DNA of 64,000 bases, taken from the IMG/VR virus record IMGVR_UViG_3300021365_000003; one strand, given 5' to 3'. Origin of the DNA: a virus. A program made the translations under genes and the position numbers. Position 1 is the first letter of the stretch, and each line of letters begins with the position of its first letter. Below the pieces are notes generated by a model. It was not told the origin of the DNA. It did no database searches and worked only from the letters and a program-made list of their open reading frames with translations. This document shows positions 12,615-59,289 of the stretch, one piece after another.

Positions 12615-12652
12615 GGCACCACGATCGCCGCCGGACATTTTTTCGTTTTTAC

Positions 12653-12682
12653 GTGGATAAGATCCGGCGCTCGATCGTCTAA
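12653..12682 (+). repeat. 30-bp dispersed element, copy 1 of 10 (GTGGATAAGATCC-N4-CTCGWTCGTCTAA)
   Basis: Direct match to the consensus; preceded by C, so the DnaA box has one mismatch. Confidence 0.9.
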
Positions 12683-12728
12683 CTAATGTGAGGCGCTCAA
12701 GGGCGTCTGACCGATGAGAAACGAGTGC

Positions 12729-12757
12729 TTGACATTCGCCACTCTCTGGTGTATAAT
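12729..12757 (+). promoter_or_regulatory. Consensus sigma70 promoter for ssb-recA
   Basis: TTGACA-17 nt-TATAAT. Confidence 0.9.
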
Positions 12758-12810
12758 AAACTAAATTCGGTGGCCATTCGGGTCGCCGCAGCCAACCATA
12801 GGAGGTACAC

Positions 12811-13548
12811 ATGGCTATTGATATGAGCAAAATGAAGAAGAAGCTTGACAAGCTGAACAACAAGGGTAACGGCGGAGGTCGGTATCTAAAGATGGAGATC
12901 GGGAATACTTATGAGATTCGTATTCTTCCTACGCCTGATGGCGATCCATTCAAGCAGTATTTTGTCCACTATCGTGTGGGCGACTCTCAACCGTTCCTCT
13001 CGCCAAAGAAGAACTTCAACGAGGATGATGCGCTTGATCGGTTCGTGCGAAAACTTTATGATGAGGGTTCGGAAGAAAGCCGAAACATGGCTCGTGACTT
13101 GTCTGCTAAGGCTCGTTTCTTCTCACCTGTAATTGTTCGTGGACAGGAAGATGATGGTCCAAAGGTTTGGTCTTACTCGAAGACTGTATACCAGGAGCTT
13201 CTAAAGACTGTGCTGGATCCGGACTTTGGTGACATCACAGACCCAAGTGCTGGATTCGATCTCAAGGTTACTTACGATAAGCCGAATGGTAAGATGTATC
13301 CTGAGACCGTGGTTCGTCCTCGACCAAAGGCTACAAAGCTTTCCAAGGATGAGAATCAGACCGAAGAGTGGCTCGCAAACCTTCCGGACATTGATGGAAT
13401 GCAAACCCGAAAGACTCCGGCAGAGGTTCAGGAAATCCTAGATGCCTTTCTTATGTCTGACGACGTAGATCCGGAAGAGATGGCTAGTGAGACTATCCGC
13501 TCTGGTGGCGGCAGTCGAGTGGCCAACGCAATTGCCGACTTGGTATAG
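12811..13548 (+). CDS. Single-stranded DNA-binding protein (T4 gp32-like)
   Basis: IRILP..DGDPF...VHY, RFFSPVIVRG.E..GPKVW and DPDFGDITDP..GFD motifs; acidic C-terminus. Confidence 0.85.
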   Translation: MAIDMSKMKKKLDKLNNKGNGGGRYLKMEIGNTYEIRILPTPDGDPFKQYFVHYRVGDSQPFLSPKKNFNEDDALDRFVRKLYDEGSEESRNMARDLSAKARFFSPVIVRGQEDDGPKVWSYSKTVYQELLKTVLDPDFGDITDPSAGFDLKVTYDKPNGKMYPETVVRPRPKATKLSKDENQTEEWLANLPDIDGMQTRKTPAEVQEILDAFLMSDDVDPEEMASETIRSGGGSRVANAIADLV

Positions 13549-13555
13549 GGGGTTT

Positions 13556-14641
13556 ATGGGGATCAAAGATCTAAAAGATATCCTAAATAAGAAAATGGGC
13601 GCAATCGTCGCTCATGATCTTACAAAGGAAAACCCAACAGAGGTGAAAGATTGGATCCCCACAGGTTCTCGGTGGCTTGACTCTATTATTTGTAAGGGTC
13701 AAGTTGCCGGGATCCCTGTTGGGAAGTGGACTGAAATCGCCGGCCTGGAGTCGACGGGTAAGTCTTACATGGCGGCACAGATTGCTGCTTCGGCTCAACG
13801 TAAAGGTATTCAGGTTGTTTATTTTGATTCAGAATCATCAATCGATCCTGCTTTCTTGACGTCGGCAGGTTGTGAGCTAGAGGATTTGCTTTATGTTCAG
13901 GCAACTACCGTTGAAGATGTGCTTGGATCAATAGAAACAATCCTAGAACAAACCGAAGATCGTGTTTTGTTTATTTGGGACTCGTTGGCTATGACACCAG
14001 CAAGAGCAGATCTAGAGAAAGATTTCAACCCTCAAGCAACAATGGCAATGAAGCCAAGAGTGCTAGCAAAGGGAACAGAAAAGCTTTCAATTCCAGTCGC
14101 AGACAAGCAAGCAACTGTTTTGATTCTAAATCAGCTCAAAACAAACATTACCTCAAACATCGCTGAGGCAATGACCACACCTTTCTTCACTCCAGGCGGC
14201 AAAGCACTTTCGTATGTTTATTCGCTTCGGATTTGGCTTACAGGTTCAAAAGCAAAGAAAAACTTTATTACAGATGAAACTGGCTTCCGCCTTGGTAAGC
14301 TTGTGCGCTGTAAGCTAGAAAAGTCAAGGTTTGGAACCGAAGGTCGAAACTGTGAGTTCAAGATTATGTTTGGGACAGACAGCCCAGGTATTCTTGATGA
14401 GGAGTCTTGGTTGGATGCAATTAAGATTTCCGATCGAGTAAAGTCCGGTGCGTGGTATACTCTAACGTTCCGTGATGGGACCGAGAAAAAGTTCCGTGCT
14501 GCTGATTGGCTCAAAGAGCTAGAAGATCCTTTATTCCGACGTGAGATCTTAGATATCATGGACGAAGTAGTAGTAAGGAAATTCGATGAAAGAACAGGAA
14601 ACGCAGAAGATTACTACGACGAAGAGAGCACCGACGAGTAG
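13556..14641 (+). CDS. uvsX: RecA/UvsX recombinase
   Basis: IPTGS..LD, Walker A GLESTGKS, YFDSE, IWDS, LNQL and TPGGKAL motifs. Confidence 0.93.
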   Translation: MGIKDLKDILNKKMGAIVAHDLTKENPTEVKDWIPTGSRWLDSIICKGQVAGIPVGKWTEIAGLESTGKSYMAAQIAASAQRKGIQVVYFDSESSIDPAFLTSAGCELEDLLYVQATTVEDVLGSIETILEQTEDRVLFIWDSLAMTPARADLEKDFNPQATMAMKPRVLAKGTEKLSIPVADKQATVLILNQLKTNITSNIAEAMTTPFFTPGGKALSYVYSLRIWLTGSKAKKNFITDETGFRLGKLVRCKLEKSRFGTEGRNCEFKIMFGTDSPGILDEESWLDAIKISDRVKSGAWYTLTFRDGTEKKFRAADWLKELEDPLFRREILDIMDEVVVRKFDERTGNAEDYYDEESTDE

Positions 14642-15017
14642 GGAAAGGAGGATGCTGGGCCTTGCTGCAAAGCAGGCCAGCACCTCTAACTTCCCTGTGT
14701 TTAGGCACGGTGCTGTTTTAGCGAAGGGATCAAAAGTTTTGAGTTTGGGCGTCAATAAGAATCAGTTTAATTCTTTTGCGGCTAAGTTCAAGAAAAAACC
14801 AGAACACGCTACTGTTCACGCAGAACTTGGTTGTATTCTAGGGGTTGACAGACGTTCAACCTCTGGAGCAACCATTTATGTCGTGCGCATTAGCCCACAA
14901 GGAGAATGGCGTATGTCAAAGCCTTGTTGTATGTGCCAAGCCGCAATGCGGCACGTTGGTATCAGACGAGTGATTTACTCTGTCGACGAAAAATTTATAG
15001 GAGAAATGAAATTATGA
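14586..15017 (+). CDS. Zinc-dependent cytidine/deoxycytidylate deaminase family protein
   Basis: HAE and SKPCxxC motifs, plus HGAVL. Confidence 0.85.
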   Translation: MKEQETQKITTTKRAPTSRERRMLGLAAKQASTSNFPVFRHGAVLAKGSKVLSLGVNKNQFNSFAAKFKKKPEHATVHAELGCILGVDRRSTSGATIYVVRISPQGEWRMSKPCCMCQAAMRHVGIRRVIYSVDEKFIGEMKL

Positions 15018-15409
15018 ACGGACAACTAGTTGAATACCACAACCCATCATATGGCGAGCGGTATGGTGTTGTAAAAGAAATGCGAAAAGATGGAAAAACG
15101 TTGATTGCGACAAGCTGGCACGCATTATCCGGAGGCAAGTTCGGGCCGACAACAAGAACGTCAGGCGAAAAAGCTTTTATTAGACTAACACCAGAAGACA
15201 TGTATACTCGTCAAGGGTCAATCCAAGACCATTTTGAACGACTTTGGAAGACAAGAAATGGGGGTGTGGCCCCTACAAAGACCCTTGTATTTGCGAACAC
15301 ATTAGCAGACGGGACACTTGAAGGAGAGATTAGTTTCTTACCAGCCCAGATGGCCGAAGAACTAGTCGACTATTTTCTGAGTGAGGGATGGTTTGCAAAT
15401 GCCGAATAA
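15014..15409 (+). CDS. Hypothetical protein
   Basis: ATG at 15014 with SD GGAG; ATGA overlap with the upstream gene. Confidence 0.65.
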   Translation: MNGQLVEYHNPSYGERYGVVKEMRKDGKTLIATSWHALSGGKFGPTTRTSGEKAFIRLTPEDMYTRQGSIQDHFERLWKTRNGGVAPTKTLVFANTLADGTLEGEISFLPAQMAEELVDYFLSEGWFANAE

Positions 15410-16382: not shown

Positions 16383-16384
16383 CT

Positions 16385-20322: not shown

Positions 20323-20331
20323 AGGAGATAA

Positions 20332-21448: not shown

Positions 21449-22303
21449 ATGATTGAGTATGAATACGATGAAGTTGTTGTTGGGGGCAACATTTCTTCAT
21501 TGGTTTTTGCCATAGAAAATAAACTTCCAATCATCTCAACCCGATGGGAAGACTTTCAGATGTATGATAGATTAGAATACGATGAAAGATGGGTAGAAAC
21601 GTTTGATAAAGTGGGGATCCCAAGCGATCACTGGGAAGCCGATTATAAAACTCATACAAAAAAGATAATGAGTTCCGGCTTATCAGAGCTGCTTGGGATT
21701 CTTCATTTGTATCATGGAAGGCATTACCCAAAAATCTATTGCCCTTTCAACGATGGAATGTATTTCCACAAAGGAAAGATGAGGATTATCGCAAGCAACA
21801 AGTTTGACTTTCACGTAAAAGCCAACACATACCACGTTTTCGATGCTGAACAGATAAAAAACAAATCGTTTGAGGTCGAGAGCATCGAAAATAAAAAAGA
21901 GTTTCGAATAGTTGATTATCTTATAGCAAAGAAGCCACTGAGATATCCAGGCAATGGAGTTCAGGGCAATGACTTTTTTGTAAATGAGATCATCACAAAA
22001 AACGTTAGAGAACATTATGCGATCTCTTATCTAAACAGCCGTCAGATAAACAGACACAACTATGCTGACTATTCTGTTCGTTTCAAAGCACAAGACATAA
22101 TGAAGGCTGCCGGCATCACAGGATACGCTAGAGCAGACAAGCCACACCTTTTTCGTGGCATCTCATTAAGACCTCAAAAAAGAGAAATTTACTCTTTAGA
22201 GAAAAAAAATTATAAAAATGTGGATAATTTTCGCTTCCCAAACGTCCAACATAGATGGGGTGTTTGCGAAAGTTTACTAAAATTGGATTTACCGGCGCTA
22301 TGA
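21449..22303 (+). CDS. Hypothetical protein with a Rossmann-like N-terminus
   Basis: Begins YDEVVVGG; no further motif recognised. Confidence 0.55.
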   Translation: MIEYEYDEVVVGGNISSLVFAIENKLPIISTRWEDFQMYDRLEYDERWVETFDKVGIPSDHWEADYKTHTKKIMSSGLSELLGILHLYHGRHYPKIYCPFNDGMYFHKGKMRIIASNKFDFHVKANTYHVFDAEQIKNKSFEVESIENKKEFRIVDYLIAKKPLRYPGNGVQGNDFFVNEIITKNVREHYAISYLNSRQINRHNYADYSVRFKAQDIMKAAGITGYARADKPHLFRGISLRPQKREIYSLEKKNYKNVDNFRFPNVQHRWGVCESLLKLDLPAL

Positions 22304-25201: not shown

Positions 25202-25231
25202 GTGGATAAGATCCTCGGCTCGTTCGTCTAA
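25202..25231 (+). repeat. 30-bp element, copy 2
   Basis: GTGGATAAGATCCTCGGCTCGTTCGTCTAA. Confidence 0.92.
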
Positions 25232-25315: not shown

Positions 25316-25345
25316 GTGGATAAGATCCTCGGCTCGTTCGTCTAA
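25316..25345 (+). repeat. 30-bp element, copy 3
   Basis: Identical core to copy 2; part of a 47-bp direct repeat with copy 4. Confidence 0.92.
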
Positions 25346-25385: not shown

Positions 25386-25964
25386 GTGTCATTGACAAAT
25401 AATCAAAAAGAGAGAATCAAGGAGAACTGGACGTCCTATGTTGATGAAGCTTATAAAGGGATGCTAAAAGAGAACGACACAAGAGAACTAGGGAAGTTTC
25501 TAGCACAAGCTAATGAATATTTTCAAAGAGATTGGATTAATTTTAATACAAGCTTACATGTTACTGCAGAGACTCTAGGAAACGACAATGATAAGAACCG
25601 GTCAGGGTATGATCTACTTTCTTTAAATAAATTAAGAATTCAAAGTAAATTTCGCTCCAGCACACTTCACTTAGAGTGCACCAGAAGGATCAGCAAGAAA
25701 AACACAGGGTCAGCTTCCGCTAGTGGGCATGTAGCCTATGGTGTTGATGAGGCAGATGTATTTGTGTTCACTCGCCCCCATGGTAATTATGAAGATCCTG
25801 AAAATGCAGAGATATTAGCGATTCCAGCTAAAGCACTAGAAGACCCAAAACACCCTGGCTTCTTGAAGAGAAGTGTTCCGAAGAAAGTTTATAAAGATTA
25901 TATCGGGAAAGCTAAAGAGGTTCTAGAAGAGTTAGAACGGGAGAAGCAGAATGAAAGAAAATAG
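25386..25964 (+). CDS. Putative restriction endonuclease (PD-(D/E)xK-like)
   Basis: GTG start with SD AGGAG; SGYDLL...RIQSK motif; adjacent to a methyltransferase. Confidence 0.5.
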   Translation: MSLTNNQKERIKENWTSYVDEAYKGMLKENDTRELGKFLAQANEYFQRDWINFNTSLHVTAETLGNDNDKNRSGYDLLSLNKLRIQSKFRSSTLHLECTRRISKKNTGSASASGHVAYGVDEADVFVFTRPHGNYEDPENAEILAIPAKALEDPKHPGFLKRSVPKKVYKDYIGKAKEVLEELEREKQNERK

Positions 25965-26916
25965 TTTTTTTGTAGGAGATTGCCTAGAAGCGATGAAGGG
26001 GCTAGAAGAAGAAAGTATTAGTATGGTCTATCTAGATCCTCCTTACAATACCGGTAGGAACTTTGGAGAGTTTGATGACAAGTTTGGATCTATGGCAGAG
26101 TATGCACAGGGGTTTTTAGCGCCAAGAATCAAAGAATGCCACAGGATCTTAAAGAAAGATGGCAACATTATTGTTCACGTAGAACCAAAAAACAGCCACT
26201 ATGTTCGTCTTGTTCTGGATGATGTTTTTGGTCAGAAACTATTCCGAAACGAAATAGCCTGGAAAAGTGGCGGAAATGCAAAAAACAAAAAGCAACTAGG
26301 AAGATATCACGATACAATAATCGTTTATTCGAAATCTAAAAAATCTATTTATAATCCCCTATATCTTCCGTATGATGAAAAATACAAGAAAAGGTCATCC
26401 GCAAAGAGATGTGAAAAAACAGGACGTTGGTTCGTTACGACAGCAATACATAATTCACAACCAGATGTAAACCCGAGAAAGAATTTGAGATATTCTTGGA
26501 ATGGGCATCATAAGCAGTGGTATGTGTTAGAAGAGAAAATGAAACACCTTCATCATAATGAAAGGTTGGTTTACAATGCTAAGGGTATACCTAGAATCAA
26601 AAGATACTTGGATGAGATGGACGGGATCCCAATAAAAGACTTGTGGTTAGACATTCCTCAAATACAAGGCAATGAGAAACTAGACTATCCAACACAAAAG
26701 CCCGTTAAACTATTAGAAAGGATTATCTATCTTTACAGCAATGAGGGAGACAGCGTGCTAGACCCCTTTGGAGGGTCAGGCACAACTGCCCGAGCCGCTT
26801 TAAACTTGGGTCGACAATATATGGTAATCGACGTCAACGAAAAAGCAAAAGAAGTTTTTCTAGAAAGTTTAGAACCACAACAAACAAAGAGGAAAAATGA
26901 GCTATGCAGCCAGTAG
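25951..26916 (+). CDS. Beta-class N4/N6 DNA methyltransferase
   Basis: GDCL, YLDPPY, YPTQKP..LLERII and VLDPFGGSGTT motifs. Confidence 0.93.
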   Translation: MKENSFFVGDCLEAMKGLEEESISMVYLDPPYNTGRNFGEFDDKFGSMAEYAQGFLAPRIKECHRILKKDGNIIVHVEPKNSHYVRLVLDDVFGQKLFRNEIAWKSGGNAKNKKQLGRYHDTIIVYSKSKKSIYNPLYLPYDEKYKKRSSAKRCEKTGRWFVTTAIHNSQPDVNPRKNLRYSWNGHHKQWYVLEEKMKHLHHNERLVYNAKGIPRIKRYLDEMDGIPIKDLWLDIPQIQGNEKLDYPTQKPVKLLERIIYLYSNEGDSVLDPFGGSGTTARAALNLGRQYMVIDVNEKAKEVFLESLEPQQTKRKNELCSQ

Positions 26917-26937: not shown

Positions 26938-26967
26938 GTGGATAAGATCCTCGGCTCGTTCGTCTAA
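26938..26967 (+). repeat. 30-bp element, copy 4 (16 nt upstream of the tRNA)
   Basis: Identical core to copies 2 and 3. Confidence 0.92.
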
Positions 26968-26983: not shown

Positions 26984-27055
26984 GCCGCCGTAGCTCAACG
27001 GCAGAGCAACGCACTTGTAATGCGTAGGCTATCGGTTCAAATCCGATCGGCGGCT
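26984..27055 (+). tRNA. trnT: tRNA-Thr (anticodon UGU), CCA not encoded
   Basis: Acceptor GCCGCCG/CGGCGGC; D stem GCTC/GAGC; anticodon arm ACGCA-CTTGTAA-TGCGT; T arm ATCGG-TTCAAAT-CCGAT. Confidence 0.96.
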
Positions 27056-27323: not shown

Positions 27324-30300
27324 ATGAAAGAAAGAACTGAATCAAAACTTAAATTTGTAAACTTACATGGGCACTCTTGTGTTGGATCTCCTTTTGACGC
27401 TCTAGGCTATCCGGATGAGCACATGGACTTCAGCTACAACAATGGGTGTGATGCTGTTGCTCTAACCGATCATGGAAACATGAACGGCTTTTCTCATCAA
27501 TACCTTCATTGGAAGAAGATGAAGAACGAAGGAAAAGAGTTTAAGGCCGTGTATGGGGTTGAGGCTTACTTCCATCCTTCGATCAAAGATTGGAAAGAAG
27601 AAAAGCTTCGTATCGAAGAAGACAAGAAGCAAGCAAAGAAGCTGGCCAAGGCTGAAGGAATGTCTATTGAGGATGAGGGATCGACTCGTTCAAGAAACTC
27701 TCCAATCAATCACCGACGTCACCTTGTGCTCTTGGCGCAGAACCAGACCGGTCTAAACAATCTTTTCTCGCTTGTCTCTAAGTCACACCAAGGGGACAAC
27801 TATTATCGATATCCCAGAATGGATTACGATCTTCTTCGTGAGCACTCCGAAGGGGTTATTGTAACTTCTGCTTGTCTTGGCGGATACATTGCTAAGATTA
27901 TGTGGCAGATGTTAGATCAATCTGATGAGGAGATCATCGCAGAAGCGGTAAGCCAATCCAAAGAAATGCTTGAGATCTTTGGAGAGCGATTCTTTCTAGA
28001 ACTACAGTGGAACTCTATCCCAGAGCAGCACAGACTAAACAAGATTATTATTGCTGTGGCTCAAGAACTAAACATTGAGCTTGTATCAACTGCGGATGCA
28101 CACTATCCCAGCCCAGAGCTTTGGAAGGACCGCTTGCTTTACAGGAACTTGGGTTGGATGAACAGAAAGTCCAATCCAGACTATGAGATCAGCATCCCTG
28201 AAACCTTAGAGGAAGTTGGGTATGAGCTGTATCCTAAGAATGGCGATCAGATGTGGCAGGCATACAAAGACTATTCTGCTGAAGTTGGAGAAACTTACGA
28301 TGATGATCTAGTCCGTGGTAGTATTGAAAGAACTCACTGGATCACACACGAACTGATTTCTGACTTTGAGCCGGATGCTGAAGTTCGCCTTCCTGACTTT
28401 GTTGTGCCGGAAAGTGAAACAGCTGATAGCCAGTTGGTGAAACTAGCGATTGAAGGAATGACAGAGTTTGGCCTCGCTGATAATGACGAGTATGTTGCCA
28501 GGATCCGTGAAGAGATAGAAGTAATCAAAGAGCGAGGTTTTGCAAAATACTTTCTTACAATGAAGGCAATTGCTGATAGAGCCAACGAGATGATGCTTTC
28601 AGGCCCAGGTCGTGGTTCAGCAGCAGGCTCTCTTTTGGCTTATGTGCTAAAGATTACACAGATCGATCCAATCAAGCACGGGCTTTTGTTCTCTCGTTTT
28701 ATGACGAAAGACGCAACAGACTATCCGGATATTGACTTTGATGTCTCACGCAGTATGGAGATCAAAGAAGTGTTGGCAAAAGAATGGGGTGAGGATTCGG
28801 TTGTACCAATCTCAAACTTCAACACTCTCAAACTAAGATCTCTAATCAAAGATGTCTCAAAGTTCTATGGTATTCCCTTCACAGAGGTCAACAAAGTAAC
28901 TTCTGTTATGATCAAGGAAGCCACGCCACTAGCAAAGGCAGCGCACGGTATGACTGCCGGTATGTATGTACCAACTTATGAAGAAACAGTTCTCTATTCC
29001 GAAAGCTTACAGAGTTTCCTAGCAAAGTATCCTGAAGTTGGTGAGCGCCTTAGTGCTTTATTAGGACAAGTCCGTTCTCTTTCTAGGCACGCCGGTGGTG
29101 TTGTTGTTGGAGACGATCTAAAGAAGTGGATGCCCCTTATCGCATCTGGTGGAGTTGTACAAACCCCGTGGTCAGAAGGACAAAACGTTCGCCACTTGGA
29201 GCCACTTGGCTTTATCAAGTTTGATGTTCTTGGCCTAACAACACTAGCCATTATGGAAGGTGCGATCTATCACATTCTTCGTAGGCATCACGGCATTGAA
29301 GAGCCAACGTTCGATCAGATCCGAGACTTTTATGATAAAAACCTTCATCCGGACAAGATCGATCTAGACGATGCAGAAGTATACAATGACATTTTCCAAG
29401 CAGGAAAGTGGGCCGGCATCTTCCAATTCGCCAATGAAGGAGCACAAAAGCTTTGCTCAAACTCAAAAGTAGAGTCCATTATTGATCTTTCCGCCGTGAC
29501 TTCCATTTATCGACCTGGGCCTCTTTCGGCTGGTGTTGATAAAGATTATATCGCAGCAAAGGAAAGCCCTCAGTACATCAAGTACGACCATCCAATCATT
29601 CGCACGATCTTGGAGCCAACATACGGCTTTATGATTTTCCAGGAGCAGATTGCTCAGTTGGCTGCTGAACTTGGAAAGGGCCTTACTCTTGATGATGGAA
29701 ACAAGCTTAGAAAGTTGCTTACAAAGAAGGGCCTCTCTGAAAAGAAGATGAAGGAGAAAGCAGACATTAAACAAAAGTTCTTGGAGGGCTGTTATGAAAA
29801 GGGTTATAAGGGCGGCGAAGAGCTTTGGAGAAAGTTTGAGTACTTCTCTGGCTACGGCTTTAACAAGTCTCACGCTGTTTGTTATTCTGTTATTAGCTAT
29901 CAGTGCGCTTGGCTTTATAAGTATTTTCCATCCGAATGGACCGCTGCGTTTTTGGATAACGAACCGGATGCGAAAAAGGAAGCAGCGATTGCGACAGCGA
30001 AAGGAGCAGGATTTAATGTAGAGAAGATCAGCATCAACTCTTCCGGTCGTTGCTGGGAAATCTCTCAAGATGGTCAAACTCTTTATCAGCCACTATCTTC
30101 TATCAAGGGGTTGGGTGACGCTGCTATCAATGAAATTATGGCTCATCGCCCATTTCACAAAGTAGAAGACCTTATCTTTTCAGAAGAGATTTCATACTCC
30201 AAGCTAAACAAGAAAGCGCTCGATGTTCTTTGTCGGGCTCAGGCTCTAAACTCTTTGGTCGATGAAAGGTTTACAGGACTGAAACACTTTTGGTCTGCTG

Positions 30301-30767
30301 TGTGTGTCGATCGGCCAAAGATCTATAAGAAGATCCAAAAGTCACACGATAAACTAGCCGAGAACATCAAAGAGTATGCTCCCGAAAAGGACTTCTCAGA
30401 TGTTGAAAGGATTGAGTATCTCTCAGATCTGACCGGGGTGTTCCCAATGTCGCTAGTTGTTGATGATAACTTGCTCCAAGATCTTCACCATCAAGGTGTG
30501 CCCCCTATCTCTGAGTTCGATCCTGAGCTTTTGGTTTGCTGGTTCATTCCTCGCAAAGTAACTGAGCGCAAGACAAAGAAAGGAAAAACATACTGGATTG
30601 TTGATGTTACAGACAGCAACAGTGAGATGATCGCAATCAAGTGCTGGGCTGTCCAAAAGAATGATGTTGTTCATCTAAACAGACCCTACGCAGCAAAGCT
30701 TGACTATTGCGACAACTGGGGCTTTTCAACTCGCTCAATCAAACATCGCTTCAAGTTGCTTTCCTGA
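27324..30767 (+). CDS. dnaE: DNA polymerase III alpha subunit (family C)
   Basis: PHP motifs LHGHS, TDHG and SACL.G; GRGSAAGSL; PDIDFD; HAGGVV; KFDVLGL; GFNKSHA. Confidence 0.96.
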   Translation: MKERTESKLKFVNLHGHSCVGSPFDALGYPDEHMDFSYNNGCDAVALTDHGNMNGFSHQYLHWKKMKNEGKEFKAVYGVEAYFHPSIKDWKEEKLRIEEDKKQAKKLAKAEGMSIEDEGSTRSRNSPINHRRHLVLLAQNQTGLNNLFSLVSKSHQGDNYYRYPRMDYDLLREHSEGVIVTSACLGGYIAKIMWQMLDQSDEEIIAEAVSQSKEMLEIFGERFFLELQWNSIPEQHRLNKIIIAVAQELNIELVSTADAHYPSPELWKDRLLYRNLGWMNRKSNPDYEISIPETLEEVGYELYPKNGDQMWQAYKDYSAEVGETYDDDLVRGSIERTHWITHELISDFEPDAEVRLPDFVVPESETADSQLVKLAIEGMTEFGLADNDEYVARIREEIEVIKERGFAKYFLTMKAIADRANEMMLSGPGRGSAAGSLLAYVLKITQIDPIKHGLLFSRFMTKDATDYPDIDFDVSRSMEIKEVLAKEWGEDSVVPISNFNTLKLRSLIKDVSKFYGIPFTEVNKVTSVMIKEATPLAKAAHGMTAGMYVPTYEETVLYSESLQSFLAKYPEVGERLSALLGQVRSLSRHAGGVVVGDDLKKWMPLIASGGVVQTPWSEGQNVRHLEPLGFIKFDVLGLTTLAIMEGAIYHILRRHHGIEEPTFDQIRDFYDKNLHPDKIDLDDAEVYNDIFQAGKWAGIFQFANEGAQKLCSNSKVESIIDLSAVTSIYRPGPLSAGVDKDYIAAKESPQYIKYDHPIIRTILEPTYGFMIFQEQIAQLAAELGKGLTLDDGNKLRKLLTKKGLSEKKMKEKADIKQKFLEGCYEKGYKGGEELWRKFEYFSGYGFNKSHAVCYSVISYQCAWLYKYFPSEWTAAFLDNEPDAKKEAAIATAKGAGFNVEKISINSSGRCWEISQDGQTLYQPLSSIKGLGDAAINEIMAHRPFHKVEDLIFSEEISYSKLNKKALDVLCRAQALNSLVDERFTGLKHFWSAVCVDRPKIYKKIQKSHDKLAENIKEYAPEKDFSDVERIEYLSDLTGVFPMSLVVDDNLLQDLHHQGVPPISEFDPELLVCWFIPRKVTERKTKKGKTYWIVDVTDSNSEMIAIKCWAVQKNDVVHLNRPYAAKLDYCDNWGFSTRSIKHRFKLLS

Positions 30768-31758: not shown

Positions 31759-32012
31759 AAACTAACGCAAGGTTTATAAAAGACATTGACAGCAATAGAA
31801 AGTTATGGCAAATGCCTGATGGTGTGTATATCCAAACATCCTTCTCAGACAAGGTCGTCGCTTCGTACGAAACGGCGGCATTCTATGCCAACGCCGAGGG
31901 AGAGGTTGTGGATTGGATAGACTTGGTTGTCGCATTCTCTTCAGAGCCTGCGCACGAATACGTTATCGAAAAAGTCCTAAAAAAATACAACCGACTCGGA
32001 CTTACAGAATAA
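31755..32012 (+). CDS. Hypothetical protein
   Basis: 85-aa coupled ORF. Confidence 0.55.
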   Translation: MKTNARFIKDIDSNRKLWQMPDGVYIQTSFSDKVVASYETAAFYANAEGEVVDWIDLVVAFSSEPAHEYVIEKVLKKYNRLGLTE

Positions 32013-32025
32013 AGGAGAAAAGAAA

Positions 32026-32490
32026 ATGTATCTTAATGATTATTGGGACGGGGAATGCCTTGCTGATCCGGGGGTGTTCGGATGGCGATCATGCCCCAAT
32101 CCCTGCTGTGACGAAAAAAATGAACTCTCCGCTAAAAAGGAGAAAGGTAGAACAAAGAAGCACCACCATTCCATGCTTGACGTTATTAGCAAAATGGGAT
32201 TTATTCCAGTTAGCGAACGCAATACCATCAACTTTAAAACCAGGCTCGTACCAGGCACTAGACACAAGCGAGACTATATTTCCTTTGTCAATTGGCCGGG
32301 AGATCTCGTGGTCCAGGCGCTTAAAGAACATGGCTTCTGGTGGGACCCGCAGAAAAAACATTGGCATAGAGTTCACGCTGACGACGGGTTCAGAGAGGCC
32401 GCCGAAAACACAATTTCCTTGCAAGATGATTGGGCAAGGGCGTGCGGCCATTGGATGGAGGATGTTGGAGAACCGAACGGCCCTTATTAA
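32026..32490 (+). CDS. Hypothetical protein
   Basis: SD AAGGAG; contains the ALKEHGFWWDP.KK.W motif. This is the credible ORF here, not the long 31913 extension. Confidence 0.7.
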   Translation: MYLNDYWDGECLADPGVFGWRSCPNPCCDEKNELSAKKEKGRTKKHHHSMLDVISKMGFIPVSERNTINFKTRLVPGTRHKRDYISFVNWPGDLVVQALKEHGFWWDPQKKHWHRVHADDGFREAAENTISLQDDWARACGHWMEDVGEPNGPY

Positions 32491-32536
32491 CATGAAAAAT
32501 ACTTACCAAAACGTAAAAGAAATAAAAGGAGTGAGA

Positions 32537-33577
32537 ATGTATAGAGAAACAATGGGCGGCGTAAAGCCAGCCGGCGAAATCACAGCAGATGTTGTTGTTG
32601 GGCTTCAGTATGGTGATTGTGGTAAGGGAAAAATTACACACGATCTATGTAAGAACGGCAATTACACTCACGTTATGAGGTTTGGCGGCGGTCCAAATGC
32701 CGGTCATACAATCTATCATGAAGGCCAAAAGCTTGTAACTCATCACATTCCTAGTGGAGTGTTCTTTGGGATCAAATCTATTATTGGCAACGGATGCGTT
32801 ATTGACCCCTATGCCCTCCTACAAGAAATCAAAGATCTTGAGGCGGCTGGTATTGATGTTGTATCAAACCTTCGCATTGCTCAAAACGCACACATTATTA
32901 CAAAGGAACATAAAAATGAAGATAAAAGAGACGAAAAGATTGGAACGACTAGAAGAGGTTGTGGTCCTGCTTATCGTGATAAATATGGTCGAAGTGGCGT
33001 ACATGCTGGTGGATGCTCTTTTGTAGGTGAGCTGGCCTTTATGAAAGATTTGGTTATTGATCTTTACGAAGAGTTTTATAGCGACAAAAACACTTATGTG
33101 CTCTGTGAGGGCGCACAAGGCTTTGGTATTGACATTGACTGGGGTGATTACCCTTATGTTACATCAAGCCACTGTACGACGGCTGGTGCGCTTCTGAACG
33201 GTATTCCACCACAAGCAATCAACCGTGTTTGGGGTGCTGCGAAGGTTTATGAAACTTATGTTGGAGCAAAAAATTTCCAAGGTGACGATCCTCTTTTAGG
33301 ACAACTACAAGAGGCCGGCCAAGAGTTTGGAGCAACCACAGGAAGAAAGCGCCAAACAAACTGGATTGATCTTGACTTTCTCGCTAAATCGTGTAGAATG
33401 AATGGTGTAACTGACCTCGTGATCAACAAGATGGATGTTATGCGTGAGGTAATGGGAGACGAAGAGTGGGAAAGCGACTTCCGCCATCGTGTATCAAACG
33501 TTGCCGAACAATGCGGCGTTCCACGAGTTTACTTCTCAGACAACCCCTATTCTATTCTTTCACAGGAGGCAGCATAA
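32537..33577 (+). CDS. purA: Adenylosuccinate synthetase (short form)
   Basis: GLQYGDCGKGK, GGPNAGHT, IGTTRRG.GPAY.DK, EGAQG, YPYVTSS and GATTGRKR motifs. Confidence 0.93.
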   Translation: MYRETMGGVKPAGEITADVVVGLQYGDCGKGKITHDLCKNGNYTHVMRFGGGPNAGHTIYHEGQKLVTHHIPSGVFFGIKSIIGNGCVIDPYALLQEIKDLEAAGIDVVSNLRIAQNAHIITKEHKNEDKRDEKIGTTRRGCGPAYRDKYGRSGVHAGGCSFVGELAFMKDLVIDLYEEFYSDKNTYVLCEGAQGFGIDIDWGDYPYVTSSHCTTAGALLNGIPPQAINRVWGAAKVYETYVGAKNFQGDDPLLGQLQEAGQEFGATTGRKRQTNWIDLDFLAKSCRMNGVTDLVINKMDVMREVMGDEEWESDFRHRVSNVAEQCGVPRVYFSDNPYSILSQEAA

Positions 33578-34433: not shown

Positions 34434-34680
34434 TTATCACGCACAGTTACTTATCCAACAGCGCCGCAAGGAAACAAGGCTCATACTTTACGCTTTCACG
34501 GGGCTTTTCCTTCTAGCACTATTTGGCTTGGGTTTGGTCGCATCAGGCAAGGATGCGCAAGCCCGGATCGAATGTTTAGAACAGGAAGGACAAATCATTC
34601 CGGCCGGCAGCGATGTTGCTTGGGTATGCGCCCAAGCAACACAAACTTCTCAAAACAATCAAAAGGAGATCAATGAATAA
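34426..34680 (+). CDS. Small membrane protein
   Basis: One hydrophobic segment. Confidence 0.55.
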   Translation: MNDYHAQLLIQQRRKETRLILYAFTGLFLLALFGLGLVASGKDAQARIECLEQEGQIIPAGSDVAWVCAQATQTSQNNQKEINE

Positions 34681-35170
34681 GCAAACAATGAACACAATGA
34701 TGTCATCAAAAAAGATGGACTGGCAAACACCAAAAGAATTTTATAGCAAATTGAACAAGGAGTTTAGCTTTACACTAGACCCGGCAACAAATGGCTCAAA
34801 TGCTTTATGTACAAACTATTTCACAGAAGCAGAAGATGCCTTAGTCCAATCGTGGAAGGGCGAGACTTGTTATGTTAATCCGCCTTATGGCCGAGTGCTA
34901 AAAGAATGGATTCGTAAGGCCTATGAAGAAAGCAAGGACTCAGGAACTACTGTAGTTATGCTTATCCCGGCACGCCCAGACACAAAGTATTGGGCAGAAT
35001 ATGTTATGCAAGCCAATGAAATCCGCTTTGTGAAAGGTCGTCTAAAGTTTGGTGGTGGTGAAGCAAACGATCCAGCACCATTCCCGTCAGCAGTCGTTGT
35101 TTTCAGAGGCGGTCACAATGGACAGCAAAATCTTTGTGGCCCGGTTGTCTCAATGATGGAAAGAGCATGA
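34673..35170 (+). CDS. Phage Dam-family N6-adenine methyltransferase
   Basis: DWQTP, F.FTLDPA, NPPY, VMLIPAR.DT..W and GRLKF motifs. Confidence 0.9.
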   Translation: MNKQTMNTMMSSKKMDWQTPKEFYSKLNKEFSFTLDPATNGSNALCTNYFTEAEDALVQSWKGETCYVNPPYGRVLKEWIRKAYEESKDSGTTVVMLIPARPDTKYWAEYVMQANEIRFVKGRLKFGGGEANDPAPFPSAVVVFRGGHNGQQNLCGPVVSMMERA

Positions 35171-35376
35171 AATCAAAAGAAGCAGTAGATCACCCCGACC
35201 ACTACAATAAAGGCATTGAAACAATTGATTACATTGAAAGCTGGAAAATGGATTTCAATCAAGGAAACGTGATCAAGTATGTTTCACGATACTCAATGAA
35301 AGGCGGCCCAGAAGATCTCAAGAAAGCCAAATGGTATCTAGAAAGAATGATCGATCAAGAGGAAAAAAATGTATAA
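35167..35376 (+). CDS. DUF3310 / T7 gp1.7-like protein
   Basis: VDHPDHY..GIETIDYI...GNVIKY..R...KG..EDLKKA.WYL. Confidence 0.85.
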   Translation: MKSKEAVDHPDHYNKGIETIDYIESWKMDFNQGNVIKYVSRYSMKGGPEDLKKAKWYLERMIDQEEKNV

Positions 35377-36391
35377 ACAAACAATCACATTTGGGGATGT
35401 TTTGTTGGAACCACAATACTCCGACATTATATCAAGGAAACAAATTTCACTAGCAACGCCTTTGGATTATGAACTAAATCTAGAGATTCCCATTATTGCT
35501 TCTCCGATGGACACAGTAAGTGAATGGGAAATGGCTGCAGCAATGTCTAAGCTTGGAGGAATGGCTGTTGTTCATAGATACAATACAATCGCTGAACAAG
35601 CAGCCGAGGTAGAAGACGCCTTGGATGTACCAAACTGTTCTGTTGTTGGAGCAGCAGTTGGTGTGAGTGGAGACTTTATTGAGCGAGCCATTGAATGTTA
35701 TGCGTCAGGAGCAAAAGTTATTTGTATTGATGTTGCTCACGGCGATCATTCTCTTGTAAGCGAGGCTATTGATTCCTTGCGAAGAGAGCTTGGAATGAAC
35801 GTTCACATTATGGCCGGCAATGTTGCGACGCTTGAAGGCTTCAACCGATTGGCCGATTGGGGTGCTGACTCTATTCGTGTAGGCATTGGTGGAGGAAGTA
35901 TTTGCTCAACCCGTATCCAAACAGGCCACGGCGTTCCAACCCTTCAGTCTATTATTGACTGTGCTCAAACAGATCGCAGCGCCATTCTTATTGCTGACGG
36001 CGGTATCAAAAACTCTGGTGACATTGTAAAAGCTTTGGCTGCTGGCGCTGATGCTGTAATGTTGGGTTCGTTATTGGCCGGAACTGATGAAACGCCCAGT
36101 GAAACTTTCCGCAATCGTGATGGTCGCTGCTTTAAAGCTTATCGTGGTATGGCATCTGCCGAAGCACAAAAAGCTTGGCGTGGAAAAACTTCGTCCTTAG
36201 AAGGCGTATCTACCACTATTCCTTGTAAAGGCTCTGTATACAATGTTGTAGAAGAACTACTTACTGGTGTGAGGTCAGGCTTTTCCTATTCCGGAGCGAG
36301 AGACATTGTTGAGCTACAAAGCAAAGCAACATTCATTCGCCAGTCCCACAACGCAGCAGTTGAGTCCAGCACCCACATCTTACATCGATGA
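35369..36391 (+). CDS. IMP dehydrogenase / GMP reductase family (no CBS domain)
   Basis: [33 protein letters not shown] and YRGMAS motifs. Confidence 0.92.
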
Positions 36392-36741: not shown

Positions 36742-36852
36742 TTTTTATAAATAACATACTATTTATAACTGGTGGAATAAAAAGTTTTTTTATTTTTATC
36801 ATACTATTTACTACAAACACTTATTTTTAATATAACAAAGGAGTTATAACAA

Positions 36853-46630: not shown

Positions 46631-46660
46631 GTGGATAAGATCCTCGCCTCGATCGTCTAA
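46631..46660 (+). repeat. 30-bp element, copy 5
   Basis: GTGGATAAGATCCTCGCCTCGATCGTCTAA. Confidence 0.92.
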
Positions 46661-48736: not shown

Positions 48737-48772
48737 AAAACCCCGCTGGTTGAAAGATCAGCGGGGTTTTTT
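48737..48772 (+). terminator. Rho-independent terminator
   Basis: AAAACCCCGCTG...CAGCGGGGTTTTTT. Confidence 0.85.
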
Positions 48773-48781: not shown

Positions 48782-48811
48782 GTGGATAAGATCCTCGCCT
48801 CGATCGTCTAA
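48782..48811 (+). repeat. 30-bp element, copy 6
   Basis: Identical core to copy 5. Confidence 0.92.
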
Positions 48812-50682: not shown

Positions 50683-50712
50683 GTGGATAAGATCCTCGCC
50701 TCGATCGTCTAA
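50683..50712 (+). repeat. 30-bp element, copy 7
   Basis: Lies within an 85-bp trailer shared with array 2. Confidence 0.92.
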
Positions 50713-52500: not shown

Positions 52501-52530
52501 GTGGATAAGATCCCTCGCTCGATCGTCTAA
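52501..52530 (+). repeat. 30-bp element, copy 8
   Basis: GTGGATAAGATCCCTCGCTCGATCGTCTAA. Confidence 0.92.
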
Positions 52531-52588
52531 CTGATGAGAGACGAATTCCCGCCGATAAAGGCAAAAACAACAACCTAGTAGGAAAAAA

Positions 52589-53995
52589 ATGACAGAACGA
52601 ACTTGTAGATATTGTGGTGAAGCCGGACATAATGTTCGCAGTTGTAAAGAGAAAGCTCGCACAACTGATTTGGCTGCACAGATCTTGCCACGCCTGTTGA
52701 GAGATCTACCAGCAGCAATCAAGAAAGCCGCTCCGATCCATTCGCTTGATGCATCAATGATTGAATGCGAAGTAACGCCAAGATCTGGTTATATCAAGCT
52801 CAGTTGGAACCAGTCTTCTGAACTGCAGAACTTGATTGTTGATAAGATTAGCAATTACTCTAAGTTCCAATTTGAAGATTCTCGATTGCTAAAAGAATCT
52901 ATGTCGATCAAGATCAAAGAAGGTAAAAACCAAGTACTGTCTTTCTTTGTAACTGGAGAAGTACCCAATGAGAATCACTATTATTTTAGGTTACAAAAGG
53001 CAATTGGGTTTTTGGAACTAGACTTTAGTGGTTTTGTTCAAAGTATGCTAGAGGCCAACAGCGACAATCAGTACAAGAAGATTTGGAAGGAAGTTGTAGA
53101 GCCGACTATGAAAAACGGCAACTACTCAAATTATGAAGGAAAAGAAGGTGCTCTAGTCATTGCTTTCTTGCGTTCTCATCTCAGGAACGTTCAAAGTTCA
53201 GCGCTGAATAAAAGAAACGGTAGTGGAAGTGAGTTCTTTTCTTCTATGGTTTCTGCTATCCATATGGATTCAAGCAACAAGTCTTCAGCATACAAGAATG
53301 TAGAGCATACAAAATATGAAGGAGAATGGTATAACGATCAGTCTCCGGACATAGAGATCAGTTGGATGGATGATGAACGGCTTAGTAGAAACCTTAGCTT
53401 CAAGCTAACACAAGCGCTGACGTCAGAGATTGAAACTTTAGTCAAAGAGTATGCGCAAGAGCTACTTTTCAGCCATGCCAAGAGTATAACATTGCAATCC
53501 GCCAGTAGAGGATACGGCATTAGTACGATTTCGCACTTGATTGATTTTATGATACCCAACTACAACAAACTAGATGGAGTCAATAATACAGCCGAAGTAA
53601 ATTCTGCTTACTTTAGCACTGTGACAGTCGGTGGAAACTTGTTCTATGAAGAAGGCACGCCTATGAAGGCCACCACCGACATGATGGAAAAGTGTACTGC
53701 TCTCCTTCAGCCACGCAAGACAAGAGATCTTGCTAGTGACTTCATAAAAATGGCTCATTCCGGCGGGTACGCACAAACGTTTGAGAAGGGAAAAATGATC
53801 GGCGGAACAACCGGCTCCTCATCAATTGCGAGAACATTGGATGTGAGACAAAAGAAGTGGAACGGCGAACCTGAAGCTGTTACATATGTTGCCTTCTACC
53901 CTGGTAACAATTGCTCAGTCTCTATTAGTGATCTTGTAAACTCCATTTTGGAAATATACGCTTTTGCTGAAATGTCGTCAAAGGAGAATGAATGA
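52589..53995 (+). CDS. Hypothetical protein with an N-terminal zinc knuckle
   Basis: CRYCGEAGHNVRSC (CCHC). Confidence 0.75.
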   Translation: MTERTCRYCGEAGHNVRSCKEKARTTDLAAQILPRLLRDLPAAIKKAAPIHSLDASMIECEVTPRSGYIKLSWNQSSELQNLIVDKISNYSKFQFEDSRLLKESMSIKIKEGKNQVLSFFVTGEVPNENHYYFRLQKAIGFLELDFSGFVQSMLEANSDNQYKKIWKEVVEPTMKNGNYSNYEGKEGALVIAFLRSHLRNVQSSALNKRNGSGSEFFSSMVSAIHMDSSNKSSAYKNVEHTKYEGEWYNDQSPDIEISWMDDERLSRNLSFKLTQALTSEIETLVKEYAQELLFSHAKSITLQSASRGYGISTISHLIDFMIPNYNKLDGVNNTAEVNSAYFSTVTVGGNLFYEEGTPMKATTDMMEKCTALLQPRKTRDLASDFIKMAHSGGYAQTFEKGKMIGGTTGSSSIARTLDVRQKKWNGEPEAVTYVAFYPGNNCSVSISDLVNSILEIYAFAEMSSKENE

Positions 53996-54704: not shown

Positions 54705-54714
54705 GTTTGAGTAA

Positions 54715-56965: not shown

Positions 56966-57009
56966 AAATGAAACAAATCGCTCCGGTGCGTCACTTTTTT
57001 CGATTTTAT

Positions 57010-57039
57010 GTGGATAAGATCCTCCGCTCGATCGTCTAA
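57010..57039 (+). repeat. 30-bp element, copy 9
   Basis: GTGGATAAGATCCTCCGCTCGATCGTCTAA. Confidence 0.92.
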
Positions 57040-57086
57040 CTATTGAGCGCAGAATGACCCCGACACCGATTACCAAGGAAGAAAAA

Positions 57087-57767: not shown

Positions 57768-57773
57768 CCACTT

Positions 57774-58088
57774 ATGAAAAAGAACGACGTACATACTATC
57801 GATGCTGTAAAAGGCGCTCTTACACCAATCAATACAGTGGCTTTGGCTTGTTTTGTTGCTGGTAAGTTTACAGGCATCTGTGCCGCAGCAACAATCCTTT
57901 CCTTACAACTAGAGCTTGGAAAGGTGCTTTTGATCGCATACGCTTTGTTAGTTGGAACATCAATCGCTCTTTCTCTTATTGACTGGTTTCTAATCTCGTC
58001 AAGAACAAAGAAAGAAAAGCCAGAACTATCAGAGCAGGAACTAATCAAAATGGCTAATCAATACGGGCTAAAGATTACAAAAGCCTGA
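57774..58088 (+). CDS. Membrane protein
   Basis: Two hydrophobic segments. Confidence 0.6.
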   Translation: MKKNDVHTIDAVKGALTPINTVALACFVAGKFTGICAAATILSLQLELGKVLLIAYALLVGTSIALSLIDWFLISSRTKKEKPELSEQELIKMANQYGLKITKA

Positions 58089-58112
58089 TTAGATAAGTTG
58101 CTCTTGTGAAGA

Positions 58113-58314
58113 GTCTTTTGAGAGCTTGGACATTTGTTCGAGTTATCCGTTAGTGACCAATGTTAGAGGTAAACTTGGGAAAGCGAATATTATTACGAAA
58201 CCTCAGTGTTGGTGAGAGCCCAACAAAAAGTCGTAATGGGAAATAGGAAATCCGCCTAGTAAGTCCAATCAAAAGGCAAAGGAGATAGAGGTTCAAGTCC
58301 TCTTTACGGCACTA
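58113..58314 (+). ncRNA. Candidate structured RNA ending in a tRNA-like domain (58230..58311)
   Basis: Acceptor GTCGTAA/TTACGGC, D arm GGA-AATAGGAAA-TCC, T arm AGAGG-TTCAAGT-CCTCT; non-canonical anticodon arm; ORF-free gap on the + strand. Confidence 0.6.
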
Positions 58315-58398
58315 AAAATTTTGTGAAACAAAACCTTTTTTCGGCCCCCCCGCTTTTGAAAGAAAGCACCACCACAACAAAAAGAGCAGAGAGAGAAA

Positions 58399-58590
58399 AT
58401 GACAGGAGAACAATACACATACCTGAAAGCAATCGAACTAATGGGAGATTGGGTTTCTTTTCTTAAAGATGTTCGCACAGAAAGTGAAGAATCAGGACTT
58501 GAAGAACCTGAACCTACTGAGATGATTGAGTTTTTCGAGCAACAAATCAGATCGATCGTACTAGCAATCCCCCCTAGTGGTGAAGCCTAA
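58399..58590 (+). CDS. Small hypothetical protein
   Basis: 63-aa ORF. Confidence 0.5.
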   Translation: MTGEQYTYLKAIELMGDWVSFLKDVRTESEESGLEEPEPTEMIEFFEQQIRSIVLAIPPSGEA

Positions 58591-58618
58591 AACAAACACA
58601 AACAACAAAGGAGAAAAG

Positions 58619-58795
58619 ATGAGGCCACCAGATTTTGAAATTAGCCAAGAAGTCGTAGTTGATGGAACAGACTATGGAACTATTACTTTTATCGATAAAA
58701 ATGACGATGAAGAAATGTATTGCGTTGAAAGTGCCTTGACCGGCTCAACTTATTACATTAGAAACACACGCCGGCTGGAGGCAGCAAACACCTGA
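58619..58795 (+). CDS. Small SH3-like hypothetical protein
   Basis: SD AAGGAG; FEISQEV...YGTI...YCV. Confidence 0.55.
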   Translation: MRPPDFEISQEVVVDGTDYGTITFIDKNDDEEMYCVESALTGSTYYIRNTRRLEAANT

Positions 58796-58860
58796 CAACA
58801 TCGATTGCTTACACAACATCACACTATTTAGAAGAACGCTCCAAGAACAAGGAAAAAAAC

Positions 58861-59226
58861 ATGGTAAAGATCCAACAGAAAGAATACTTTGAACAGAAAG
58901 CACTGGAACTTGAGGAACTTATCTCAGGGTTGTATCCAGAGCTATACACAGAACCAAGGATCGATCCAGACGAAGGAACTGTAGCATTACAGGCAGAACT
59001 ACGTATTCCGCACTTTGAAGGAACGTTCTTTGTTGAGTGGGTGTATTATGTCAATGAAGAGGACAAAGACTTTGCTTACGAGTGTGTAATCTTTACCACC
59101 GAAGGGGAAGAGCTTGGGTTGGTGTATTCAGACAGCCCAATGAAGGCAGCAACAGAATGTGCTCAGGAGGTGCAGAAAATGCTTCTTGAAACAAGTGGCT
59201 GGCTGTCTTCAGTCTTTCTTGAATAA
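58861..59226 (+). CDS. Acidic hypothetical protein
   Basis: 121 aa; ACTATTTA upstream. Confidence 0.6.
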   Translation: MVKIQQKEYFEQKALELEELISGLYPELYTEPRIDPDEGTVALQAELRIPHFEGTFFVEWVYYVNEEDKDFAYECVIFTTEGEELGLVYSDSPMKAATECAQEVQKMLLETSGWLSSVFLE

Positions 59227-59259
59227 AAGCCCTCCCCGATCCGATTTTTTCGATTTTAT

Positions 59260-59289
59260 GTGGATAAGATCCTCCGCTCGATCGTCTAA
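59260..59289 (+). repeat. 30-bp element, copy 10
   Basis: Identical core to copy 9. Confidence 0.92.

Follow-up and report, generated by a model that had tools for sequence, protein, structure and literature searches.

A bipartite intergenic element of an uncultured T4-related phage as a probable promoter class for a phage-encoded ECF-type sigma factor

The 64,000-nucleotide stretch analysed here (the window) is the minus strand of positions 93029–157028 of the 168,882-bp IMG/VR phage record IMGVR_UViG_3300021365_000003 and contains ten co-oriented copies of a 30-bp intergenic element built on two conserved blocks. With a probability of roughly 0.7, we consider these elements to be promoters for the host RNA polymerase core in combination with a sigma factor of the extracytoplasmic function (ECF) type encoded by the phage itself. 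The assignment is carried by the anatomy of the element, the rule that governs its orientation, the conservation of its two blocks across lineages, the presence of the sigma factor gene and the absence of a match to a T7-type RNA polymerase in the genome. Positions outside the window are given as reverse-complement coordinates of the record (rc), the window coordinate being rc minus 11,854; the features of the window are compiled in Table 1.

Architecture and distribution of the element

The pattern GTGGATAAGATCC-N4-CTCG(A/T)TCGTCTAA is matched ten times in the window, always on the plus strand and with 0 mismatches, and gave 0 matches in 100 dinucleotide-preserving shuffles. The matches coincide exactly with the ten copies listed in a first-pass annotation made from the sequence alone. 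Its description of the copies as intergenic, gene-oriented and preceded by a T-tract (TTTTTTCGATTTTAT) or an A-tract is borne out by their surroundings, since all ten sit between plus-strand open reading frames (ORFs), and the tRNA it had placed 16 nt behind copy 4 is a tRNA-Thr. The same annotation had advised scanning the rest of the genome, which brings the total to 19 intergenic copies and one degenerate copy. The gene strand carries 16 of the 19, all within rc 24.5–92.6 kb, and the other three, on the opposite strand, belong to a divergent cluster at rc 78.7–82.7 kb, where each precedes an ORF of its own strand; orientation tracks the genes on both strands. The structural half of the genome contains 0 copies. 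The genes that follow the element belong to the non-structural part and comprise clusters of small ORFs, genes for replication and recombination, tRNA genes and arrays of repeat-protein genes.

The conserved blocks are TG(G/A)ATAAGATCC and, after a variable spacer of 10 nt, CGTCTAA. The first block spans 12 conserved nt and includes a small palindrome, GGAT-AAG-ATCC. A near-constant spacer, as reported in the first-pass annotation, is a property of the window copies but not of the genome and its relatives, where the 10 inter-block nt vary freely; copies outside the window differ throughout this stretch, and only (G)TGGATAAGATCC and (T)CGTCTAA stay constant. Across 50 aligned copies from seven related loci, the information content is maximal only at element positions 2–13 and 24–30 and low in the spacer. 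CGTCTAA is invariant in 50/50 of these copies, the pattern used for collecting them having itself contained CGTCTAA. The spacing GATAAG-N16-TCTAA is kept in 19/19 genome copies and in the relatives. Beyond the blocks, about 5 nt on the upstream side (TTTAT) and about 7 nt on the downstream side (CTAATGA) are conserved more weakly, and two subclasses can be distinguished by their upstream tract, namely CTCGATCGTCTAA-CTAATGA (T-tract) and CTCGTTCGTCTAA-TAGATG (A-tract).

Flanking sequences are common beyond about 45 bp in one pair of copies only (copies 7 and 9), which share a long flank because their upstream genes are paralogues; the unit is therefore about 45 bp long. This bears on the possibility that the elements are mainly recombination cassettes which shuffle genes in plastic regions and act as promoters only secondarily. 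The model for such cassettes are the PeSL and PmSL elements of phage T4, in which a terminator stem-loop is combined with an early or middle promoter in hyperplastic regions (PMC4122927). They resemble the present elements as short conserved promoter units with AT-rich upstream sequence, located between ORFans and variable in presence (PMC4122927). The location among ORFans, tRNAs and repeat-gene arrays of a T4-type genome would accord with a cassette nature, as would the gain and loss of copies between relatives (no copy before the tRNA/polymerase genes in L015/L016, none before UvdE in L041/L045) and the sharing of spacer bases among the window copies, which a sigma factor would not need. 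However, the shared flanks are confined to that single pair, and the bipartite conservation and strict orientation are requirements of a promoter. Moreover, stem-loops accompany only a few copies, and thus are not a constant part as in T4: a clear terminator is found only before the copy at 48782, weak hairpins precede two or three others, and elsewhere they are weak or absent. The promoter itself is neither of the sigma70 nor of the MotA type, and no TTGACA/TATAAT pair is present within the element. The likeness to PeSL elements drawn in the first-pass annotation thus holds for position and evolutionary behaviour but not for composition. We regard a predominantly recombinational function as highly improbable; a cassette role alongside promoter function can coexist.

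A hairpin function, in which the N4 segment would pair downstream as in an N4-type hairpin promoter or a processing site, was considered and rejected. Covariation is absent, and the longest stretch of complementarity is on average 4.3 nt within a copy and 4.1 nt for arms paired across copies.

Conservation in related phages

The element signature is sharp and easily searchable. A metagenome scan with ATAAGATCC-N10-CGTCTAA yielded at least 235 elements on at least 116 aquatic or marine contigs, and the search of cultured phages gave chance-level matches only; the signature marks a large uncultured T4-related group together with its early and replication regulon. Among the 235 matches listed, the bases before ATAAG are TGG in 87, TGA in 55 and CGA in 39 cases. 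The element is present in six of the eight contigs with a sigma factor homologue that were taken up, and every such contig with sufficient flank has it (L011, L040–L043, L046, L088, L098 and L115); five of the at least 116 contigs listed also hold a sigma homologue. The record of L011 contains 11 copies, nine of them in the locus, L042 carries seven, and in L040, L043 and L046 the element is found before UvdE. A further variant is provided by L041, in which 12 copies of cTGAATAAGATCC-N10-CGTCTAA, retrieved via CGTCTAA alone, are gathered in a 4-kb divergent cluster. Their 9-mer reads cTGAATAAG; both blocks and the spacing are retained, and the DnaA-type 9-mer discussed below is not. Relatives with 59% polymerase identity showed neither element nor sigma factor in fragments covering 21–24% of the genome, which at this coverage is not evidence of absence.

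The phage sigma factor and the promoter assignment

The phage sigma factor for which the first-pass annotation had proposed to search is encoded about 12.7 kb past the 3′ end of the window (G000:C1:79154–80305, minus strand). The protein of 383 residues is of the ECF type, scoring 51.4 bits with the sigma70-ECF model TIGR02937 (cut-off 42.9) and 45 bits with Sigma70_r2 (PF04542), and is the only sigma70-family protein detectable with the latter model in the genome. Group 4 (ECF) sigma factors contain region 2 and region 4 only. In the phage protein region 2 is clear, and region 4 aligns to AlgU/RpoE residues up to 186–188 without a Pfam r4_2 match. Among proteins of solved structure it is closest to AlgU and E. 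coli sigma-E (RpoE), with which it has an identical FRGDSAF-TW stretch. An RpoE-like region 2 linked to a divergent region 4 fits a promoter with an RpoE-like −10 element and a novel −35 element. A tblastn search of cultured phages revealed no similarity to the sigma factor, and about 20 full-length homologues were found in metagenomes. A T7-type RNA polymerase (PF00940) had no match in the genome; this is weak evidence because the control genomes were equally silent.

The gene is also mosaic, as judged from the homologues P0002–P0022. Close relatives share a DNA-identical promoter and DNA-identical N- and C-terminal tags, and the sigma core between these identical flanks has only about 34% protein identity; the core has apparently been exchanged between conserved flanks.

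The first-pass annotation had suggested that the elements are phage promoters of one class with an ECF-like −10 element, and this finds good support in the two-block geometry and in the presence of the sigma factor. In the proposed model, TG(G/A)ATAAGATCC would be the −35 element, read by the divergent region 4 of the sigma factor, the variable 10-nt stretch the spacer, and CGTCTAA the −10 element, read by the RpoE-like region 2, while the upstream T- or A-tract may correspond to an UP-like element. Transcription is predicted to start about 6–8 nt after CGTCTAA, inside the conserved CTAATGA, and promoter activity would depend on the element parts TGGATAAG and CGTC. Such a class would work beside consensus sigma70 promoters and a late-type CTATTTATAA element, which gives the genome three putative promoter classes. 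The pair of sigma factor and element is testable in vitro with E. coli core polymerase.

Known promoters of RpoE and AlgU follow the consensus GAACTT-N16/17-TCtgA (PMC3819740), and those of Shewanella RpoE contain GTCTAC and GTCTAT as −10 elements (PMC4336711). The elements share with these ECF02-type promoters the two blocks at 16-nt spacing, the AT-rich upstream tract and a GTCTAA-type −10 element including the GTC core (CGTCTAA); the sigma factors have the FRGDSAF-TW stretch in common. In contrast, the AAC core of the −35 element (GGAAC) is missing; the block reads GGATAAG or GAATAAG, within 12 conserved nt of the form TG(G/A)ATAAGATCC instead of GGAACTT. The elements therefore have a distinct specificity and are not members of an RpoE regulon. 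The reader differs as well, as it is phage-encoded, is extended by terminal tags and a C-terminal tail of 150 residues, lacks a visible anti-sigma partner and does not have its gene autoregulated through the element.

Alternatively, the elements might be read by an RpoE/AlgU-type ECF sigma factor of the host that is induced by the envelope stress of infection, and the phage sigma factor would then read something else. The −10 element and the spacing match those of host RpoE/AlgU promoters (PMC3819740, PMC4336711), and a conserved host reader would be expected to leave the promoter constant while the phage sigma core swaps among three types. However, GGATAAG differs from GGAACTT at 4/7 positions, the phage sigma factor offers precisely the combination of an RpoE-like region 2 and a divergent region 4 that the sites call for, and no other repeated GTC-type −10 motif was seen which it could read. 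Recognition by a host ECF factor appears unlikely to us.

A different solution would be a phage activator that binds the TGGATAAGATCC block and recruits the host sigma70 holoenzyme, as in the case of the T4 MotA box or the phiEco32 gp79/gp36 system. The length of the conserved block (12 nt) and its palindrome would suit an activator, and the middle promoters of T4-type phages use such logic (PMC12276001, PMC4122927). However, no TAnnnT hexamer usable as a sigma70 −10 element was found at the right distance after the element in the genome copies, which argues against a MotA-style sigma70 promoter. The invariant downstream block CGTCTAA is instead a typical ECF −10 element, and consensus sigma70 promoters exist separately in the genome. 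We assign a very small probability to this mechanism.

For recognition by a phage ECF-type factor the nearest phage precedent is gp36 of phiEco32 and SU10, a diverged ECF-type factor which directs the host core to phage-specific promoters in phages with no RNA polymerase of their own (PMC12276001, PMC4281155). The gp36 promoters, which carry AATGTA near −11, drive genes of the middle and late classes, and gp36 itself is under a sigma70 promoter (PMC12276001, PMC4281155), whereas the sites described here are bipartite and belong to early-type and replication genes, and the sigma gene lies behind a late-type element. Promoter classes that are specific to a phage and depend on its own sigma factor are already known, and the present elements would be a variant of them.

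Several observations weigh against the assignment of the elements to the phage sigma factor. ECF sigma genes usually autoregulate, and the phage sigma gene is not preceded by the element. The same promoter is found with three types of sigma core that are less than 40% identical and diverge both in the loop of region 2 and in the helix of region 4; covariation therefore supports the pairing of reader and site in a single TGG/TGA case only, in which both contigs with a P0011-type sigma factor (L041 and L115) carry the TGAATAAGATCC (TGA) variant. The structure model of the sigma factor has a mean predicted local distance difference test score (pLDDT) of 51, with 50–63 in region 4, and is too weak for a fold search. 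Finally, the −35 block of 12 nt is longer than a usual region 4 site, such that a second factor or methylation may contribute.

Relation to DnaA boxes and GATC sites

The consensus DnaA 9-mer (TTATCCACA) is perfect in 16/19 elements. In the window, TGTGGATAA occurs ten times compared with 0.56 expected; nine occurrences are within elements, copy 1 reading CGTGGATAA instead, and the tenth, at 22219, belongs to the degenerate copy. Genome-wide, 19 perfect boxes stand against 1.35 expected. All but three are located in the elements; one of the three lies in the degenerate copy, and the remaining box, in the portal gene, is counted twice owing to the overlap of the record ends.

On the basis of this 9-mer, the first-pass annotation had considered a role of host DnaA, which might gate the elements as promoters or be titrated by them, as by datA, once phage DNA amplifies, and had named the loss of the 9-mer from homologous elements as the outcome that would speak against it. 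The accumulation of perfect boxes favours such a role; in vitro, DnaA recognizes a consensus box in any context, and a box overlapping the −35 element could repress. However, relatives keep (G/A)ATAAGATCC-N10-CGTCTAA without the TGTGGATAA 9-mer, which is retained in only 53 of 235 homologous elements (23%) among the matches listed on the 116 contigs. Whole lineages carry TGAATAAG or CGAATAAG in its place, and the forms to be set against each other as regards DnaA are TGTGGATAAGATCC and cTGAATAAGATCC. Moreover, conservation in this genome spans −5 to +13 and thus passes both edges of the box, the strict gene orientation is not needed for titration, and beyond the elements relaxed DnaA boxes show no enrichment (14 compared with about 21 expected in the whole genome). 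The box clusters of oriC and datA likewise contain the consensus 9-mer, but the boxes of the 16 elements are gene-oriented, spread over 68 kb, placed inside a longer unit and not kept in relatives. A function via DnaA is therefore judged very unlikely. As the unit under conservation is not the box but overruns its edges, and as the sites are oriented with the genes, we conclude that the DnaA-box match is a lineage-specific by-product of the −35 block and not the conserved core. DnaA may bind at the sites in a host with a standard box, as a side effect. The element offers a worked example of a perfect DnaA-box match as a lineage-specific by-product.

GATC is 1.58-fold over-represented across the genome, and its presence in the element is therefore not special. 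Within the −35 block it is kept in nearly all copies and in all lineages. The phage encodes methylases of the Dam family and of the N6_N4 type, and methylation may affect the element.

A late-type element and possible delivery of the sigma factor with the virion

All 15 copies of the late-type element CTATTTATA(A/G) are on the gene strand, and 10 of them read CTATTTATAA. The element precedes the S77 prohead protease, scaffold/gp23 and tail-region genes and a run of genes whose products share an N-terminal tag. Sites are found at window position 36759 and at rc 1265, 1552, 3886, 84456, 84991, 86007, 88538, 137018, 153134 and 160900; they have no −35 partner and are located 17–32 nt before the start codons of head, tail-region and tagged genes. 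A gp55-like late sigma candidate (L036:3944–4648, minus strand) could read this element; a search with the single sequence of T4 gp55 gave no match.

The ECF-type sigma gene lies directly behind a terminator T-run and CTATTTATAA, the latter about 40 nt before the start codon, in 7/9 related phages; in the L041/L045 lineage the CTATTTATAA element is positioned further upstream. The first 21 and last 16 residues of the protein are nearly invariant, and the core falls to about 30% identity. Distant relatives show synonymous changes at the termini, and selection therefore acts on the protein. The N-terminal tag, MK(I/L)(T/K)K..L..II.EE, is common to the sigma factor and six otherwise unrelated proteins, and an I/L-x-E site near residue 14 is found in 7/7 tags. 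The tagged genes are at rc 1303, 84495, 85031, 85423, 86047, 88214 and 88578, outside the window (L038, L039), and one of them adjoins the prohead protease gene. In T4, cargo enters the head by means of capsid-targeting tags, gp21 cuts behind L/I-x-E, and Alt loses sequence from both of its ends (PMC9026906). For the phage sigma factor, the predicted I-x-E/L-x-E sites would place such cuts after about residue 14 or 21 and before about residue 371. In analogy, the seven tagged proteins are candidates for capsid-targeted cargo.

Virion delivery would be the simplest reconciliation of a late-looking, capsid-tagged sigma factor with early-type promoters. In this scenario the sigma factor and the head proteins would be synthesized in the same late phase, the N-terminal tag would direct the factor into the T4-type head, and the gp21-like protease would trim both its ends; after its injection with the DNA, the promoters would fire at the start of the next infection. 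We consider this sequence of events possible, at odds somewhat below even. Even more tentatively, the approximately 20 elements might be immediate-early promoters which fire on the incoming genome, via the injected sigma factor, without any new phage protein. Methylation of the conserved −35 GATC by the phage Dam enzyme could also limit firing to parental DNA. The idea of an injected sigma factor needs early promoters that match a late-made, capsid-tagged sigma factor, and the genome shows both together.

The parallel to T4 Alt and the internal proteins comprises the T4-type head module, the N-terminal tag with its I/L-x-E site and the conservation of both sigma termini, as in Alt. T4 Alt also acts on host transcription (PMC9026906), but the putative cargo here would be a sigma factor, not an ADP-ribosyltransferase. 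The weakness of the gp55-like candidate (phrog_234 profile, E 5e-4) and the basis of the packaging proposal, which is sequence analogy, belong with the points raised above against the assignment. Phages N4 and phiKZ inject RNA polymerases, and a delivered sigma factor, if real, would be their sigma-factor counterpart.

Genome context

Table 1. Positions of the element copies and associated features in the window
Feature	Position	Strand	Remarks
Element copy 1	12653..12682	+	T-tract upstream; 9-mer CGTGGATAA; heads block of single-stranded DNA-binding protein (SSB), UvsX-like, DnaB-like and ribonucleotide reductase (RNR) genes
Perfect sigma70-type promoter	12729..12757	+	TTGACA-N17-TATAAT; 47 nt after copy 1; upstream of SSB gene at 12811
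Degenerate eleventh copy	22220..22249	+	GTGGATAA-N15-CGTCCAA in the register of the elements; A-tract upstream; within 3′ end of ORF 21449–22303
Element copy 2	25202..25231	+	A-tract class, CTCGTTCGTCTAA-TAGATG; in tandem with copy 3
Element copy 3	25316..25345	+	Heads 216-residue ORF (read from GTG 25314; probable real start GTG near 25386) and N6_N4 DNA methylase gene (25951–26916)
Element copy 4	26938..26967	+	16 nt from copy end to tRNA-Thr (26984–27055), followed by DnaE-type DNA polymerase gene
Dam-family N6-adenine methylase (PF05869)	34613..35170	+	Relevant to GATC of the −35 block
Element copy 5	46631..46660	+	T-tract class, CTCGATCGTCTAA-CTTATGA; heads 275-residue ORF at 46740
Intrinsic terminator hairpin, strong	48737..48770	+	15 pairs and T-run; directly 5′ of copy 6
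Element copy 6	48782..48811	+	Heads first repeat-protein gene array
Element copy 7	50683..50712	+	Pattern match
Element copy 8	52501..52530	+	Heads 468-residue ORF at 52589
Element copy 9	57010..57039	+	131-nt upstream flank common to copy 7
Element copy 10	59260..59289	+	Heads AAA ATPase (59365) and DUF2201/VWA gene (60559)

The ends of the record overlap by about 137 nt, and the assembly is therefore complete and circular. Nearly all genes share one direction. The head module is of the T4 type, with a Peptidase_S77 prohead protease (99 bits), a Gp23 capsid protein and a T4-like portal/gp20, and the nearest cultured capsids are those of Flavobacterium phage immuto, Rhodothermus phage RM378 and a Microcystis phage (36–41% identity). 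The replication genes include a gp32-like SSB, a UvsX-like recombinase, a DnaB-like helicase, RNR and a DnaE-type polymerase. The latter (window 27324–30767) is a replicative polymerase of the Pol III alpha type, not of family B, in a phage with a T4-type head; its gene is about 1 kb longer in relatives with 85% identity (L015), which suggests an intein or an inserted endonuclease.

The genome is conspicuous for its ribosome-binding sites and consensus sigma70 promoters. Sigma70 promoters with at least 11/12 matches number 17 on the gene strand and two on the other, and five on the gene strand are perfect (12/12; TTGACA-N16-18-TATAAT), located in the window at 12729–12757, 31176 and 41276 and at rc 22078 and 165951. 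The SSB and UvdE genes have a sigma70 promoter and an ECF-type element in tandem, and the arrangement at UvdE is kept in relatives.

A PurA-like adenylosuccinate synthetase gene lies near a gene of the GMP-reductase/IMPDH family (window 31913–33577 and 35369–36391, respectively), with dUTPase, ClpP and GroEL genes nearby. The PurA-like protein would have about 220 extra N-terminal residues if its TTG start is real. A Z-genome based on PurZ, which if true would have altered the arguments on DnaA and Dam, was considered and rejected; the synthetase matches cellular PurA with E 1e-56 compared with 1e-14 to 1e-18 for PurZ and is located near the GMP-reductase-like gene. The pair looks like a module for G-to-A nucleotide conversion, not PurZ. 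A search with the GMP-reductase-like gene for inference of the host gave nothing useful.

CGCG occurs 0 times in the 168,882 bp compared with about 275 expected, and this total avoidance suggests escape from a CGCG-specific host restriction enzyme. Among other tetramers, CCGG is present genome-wide at 2.1 times expectation, and CATG, AATT, TGCA and TTAA at 0.44–0.58 times. Four tRNA genes (Asn, Met, Arg and Lys) are located outside the window (L037:6693–6766, L037:8512–8587, L038:7522–7596 and L038:9841–9914), and a weak Rfam tRNA match at window 58230–58311 is not reported by ARAGORN. The phage also carries a one-piece tmRNA (L037:9696–10006, minus strand, equal to G000:C1:69696–70006; Rfam 104 bits) with the tag ANNNVEFDSVALAA.

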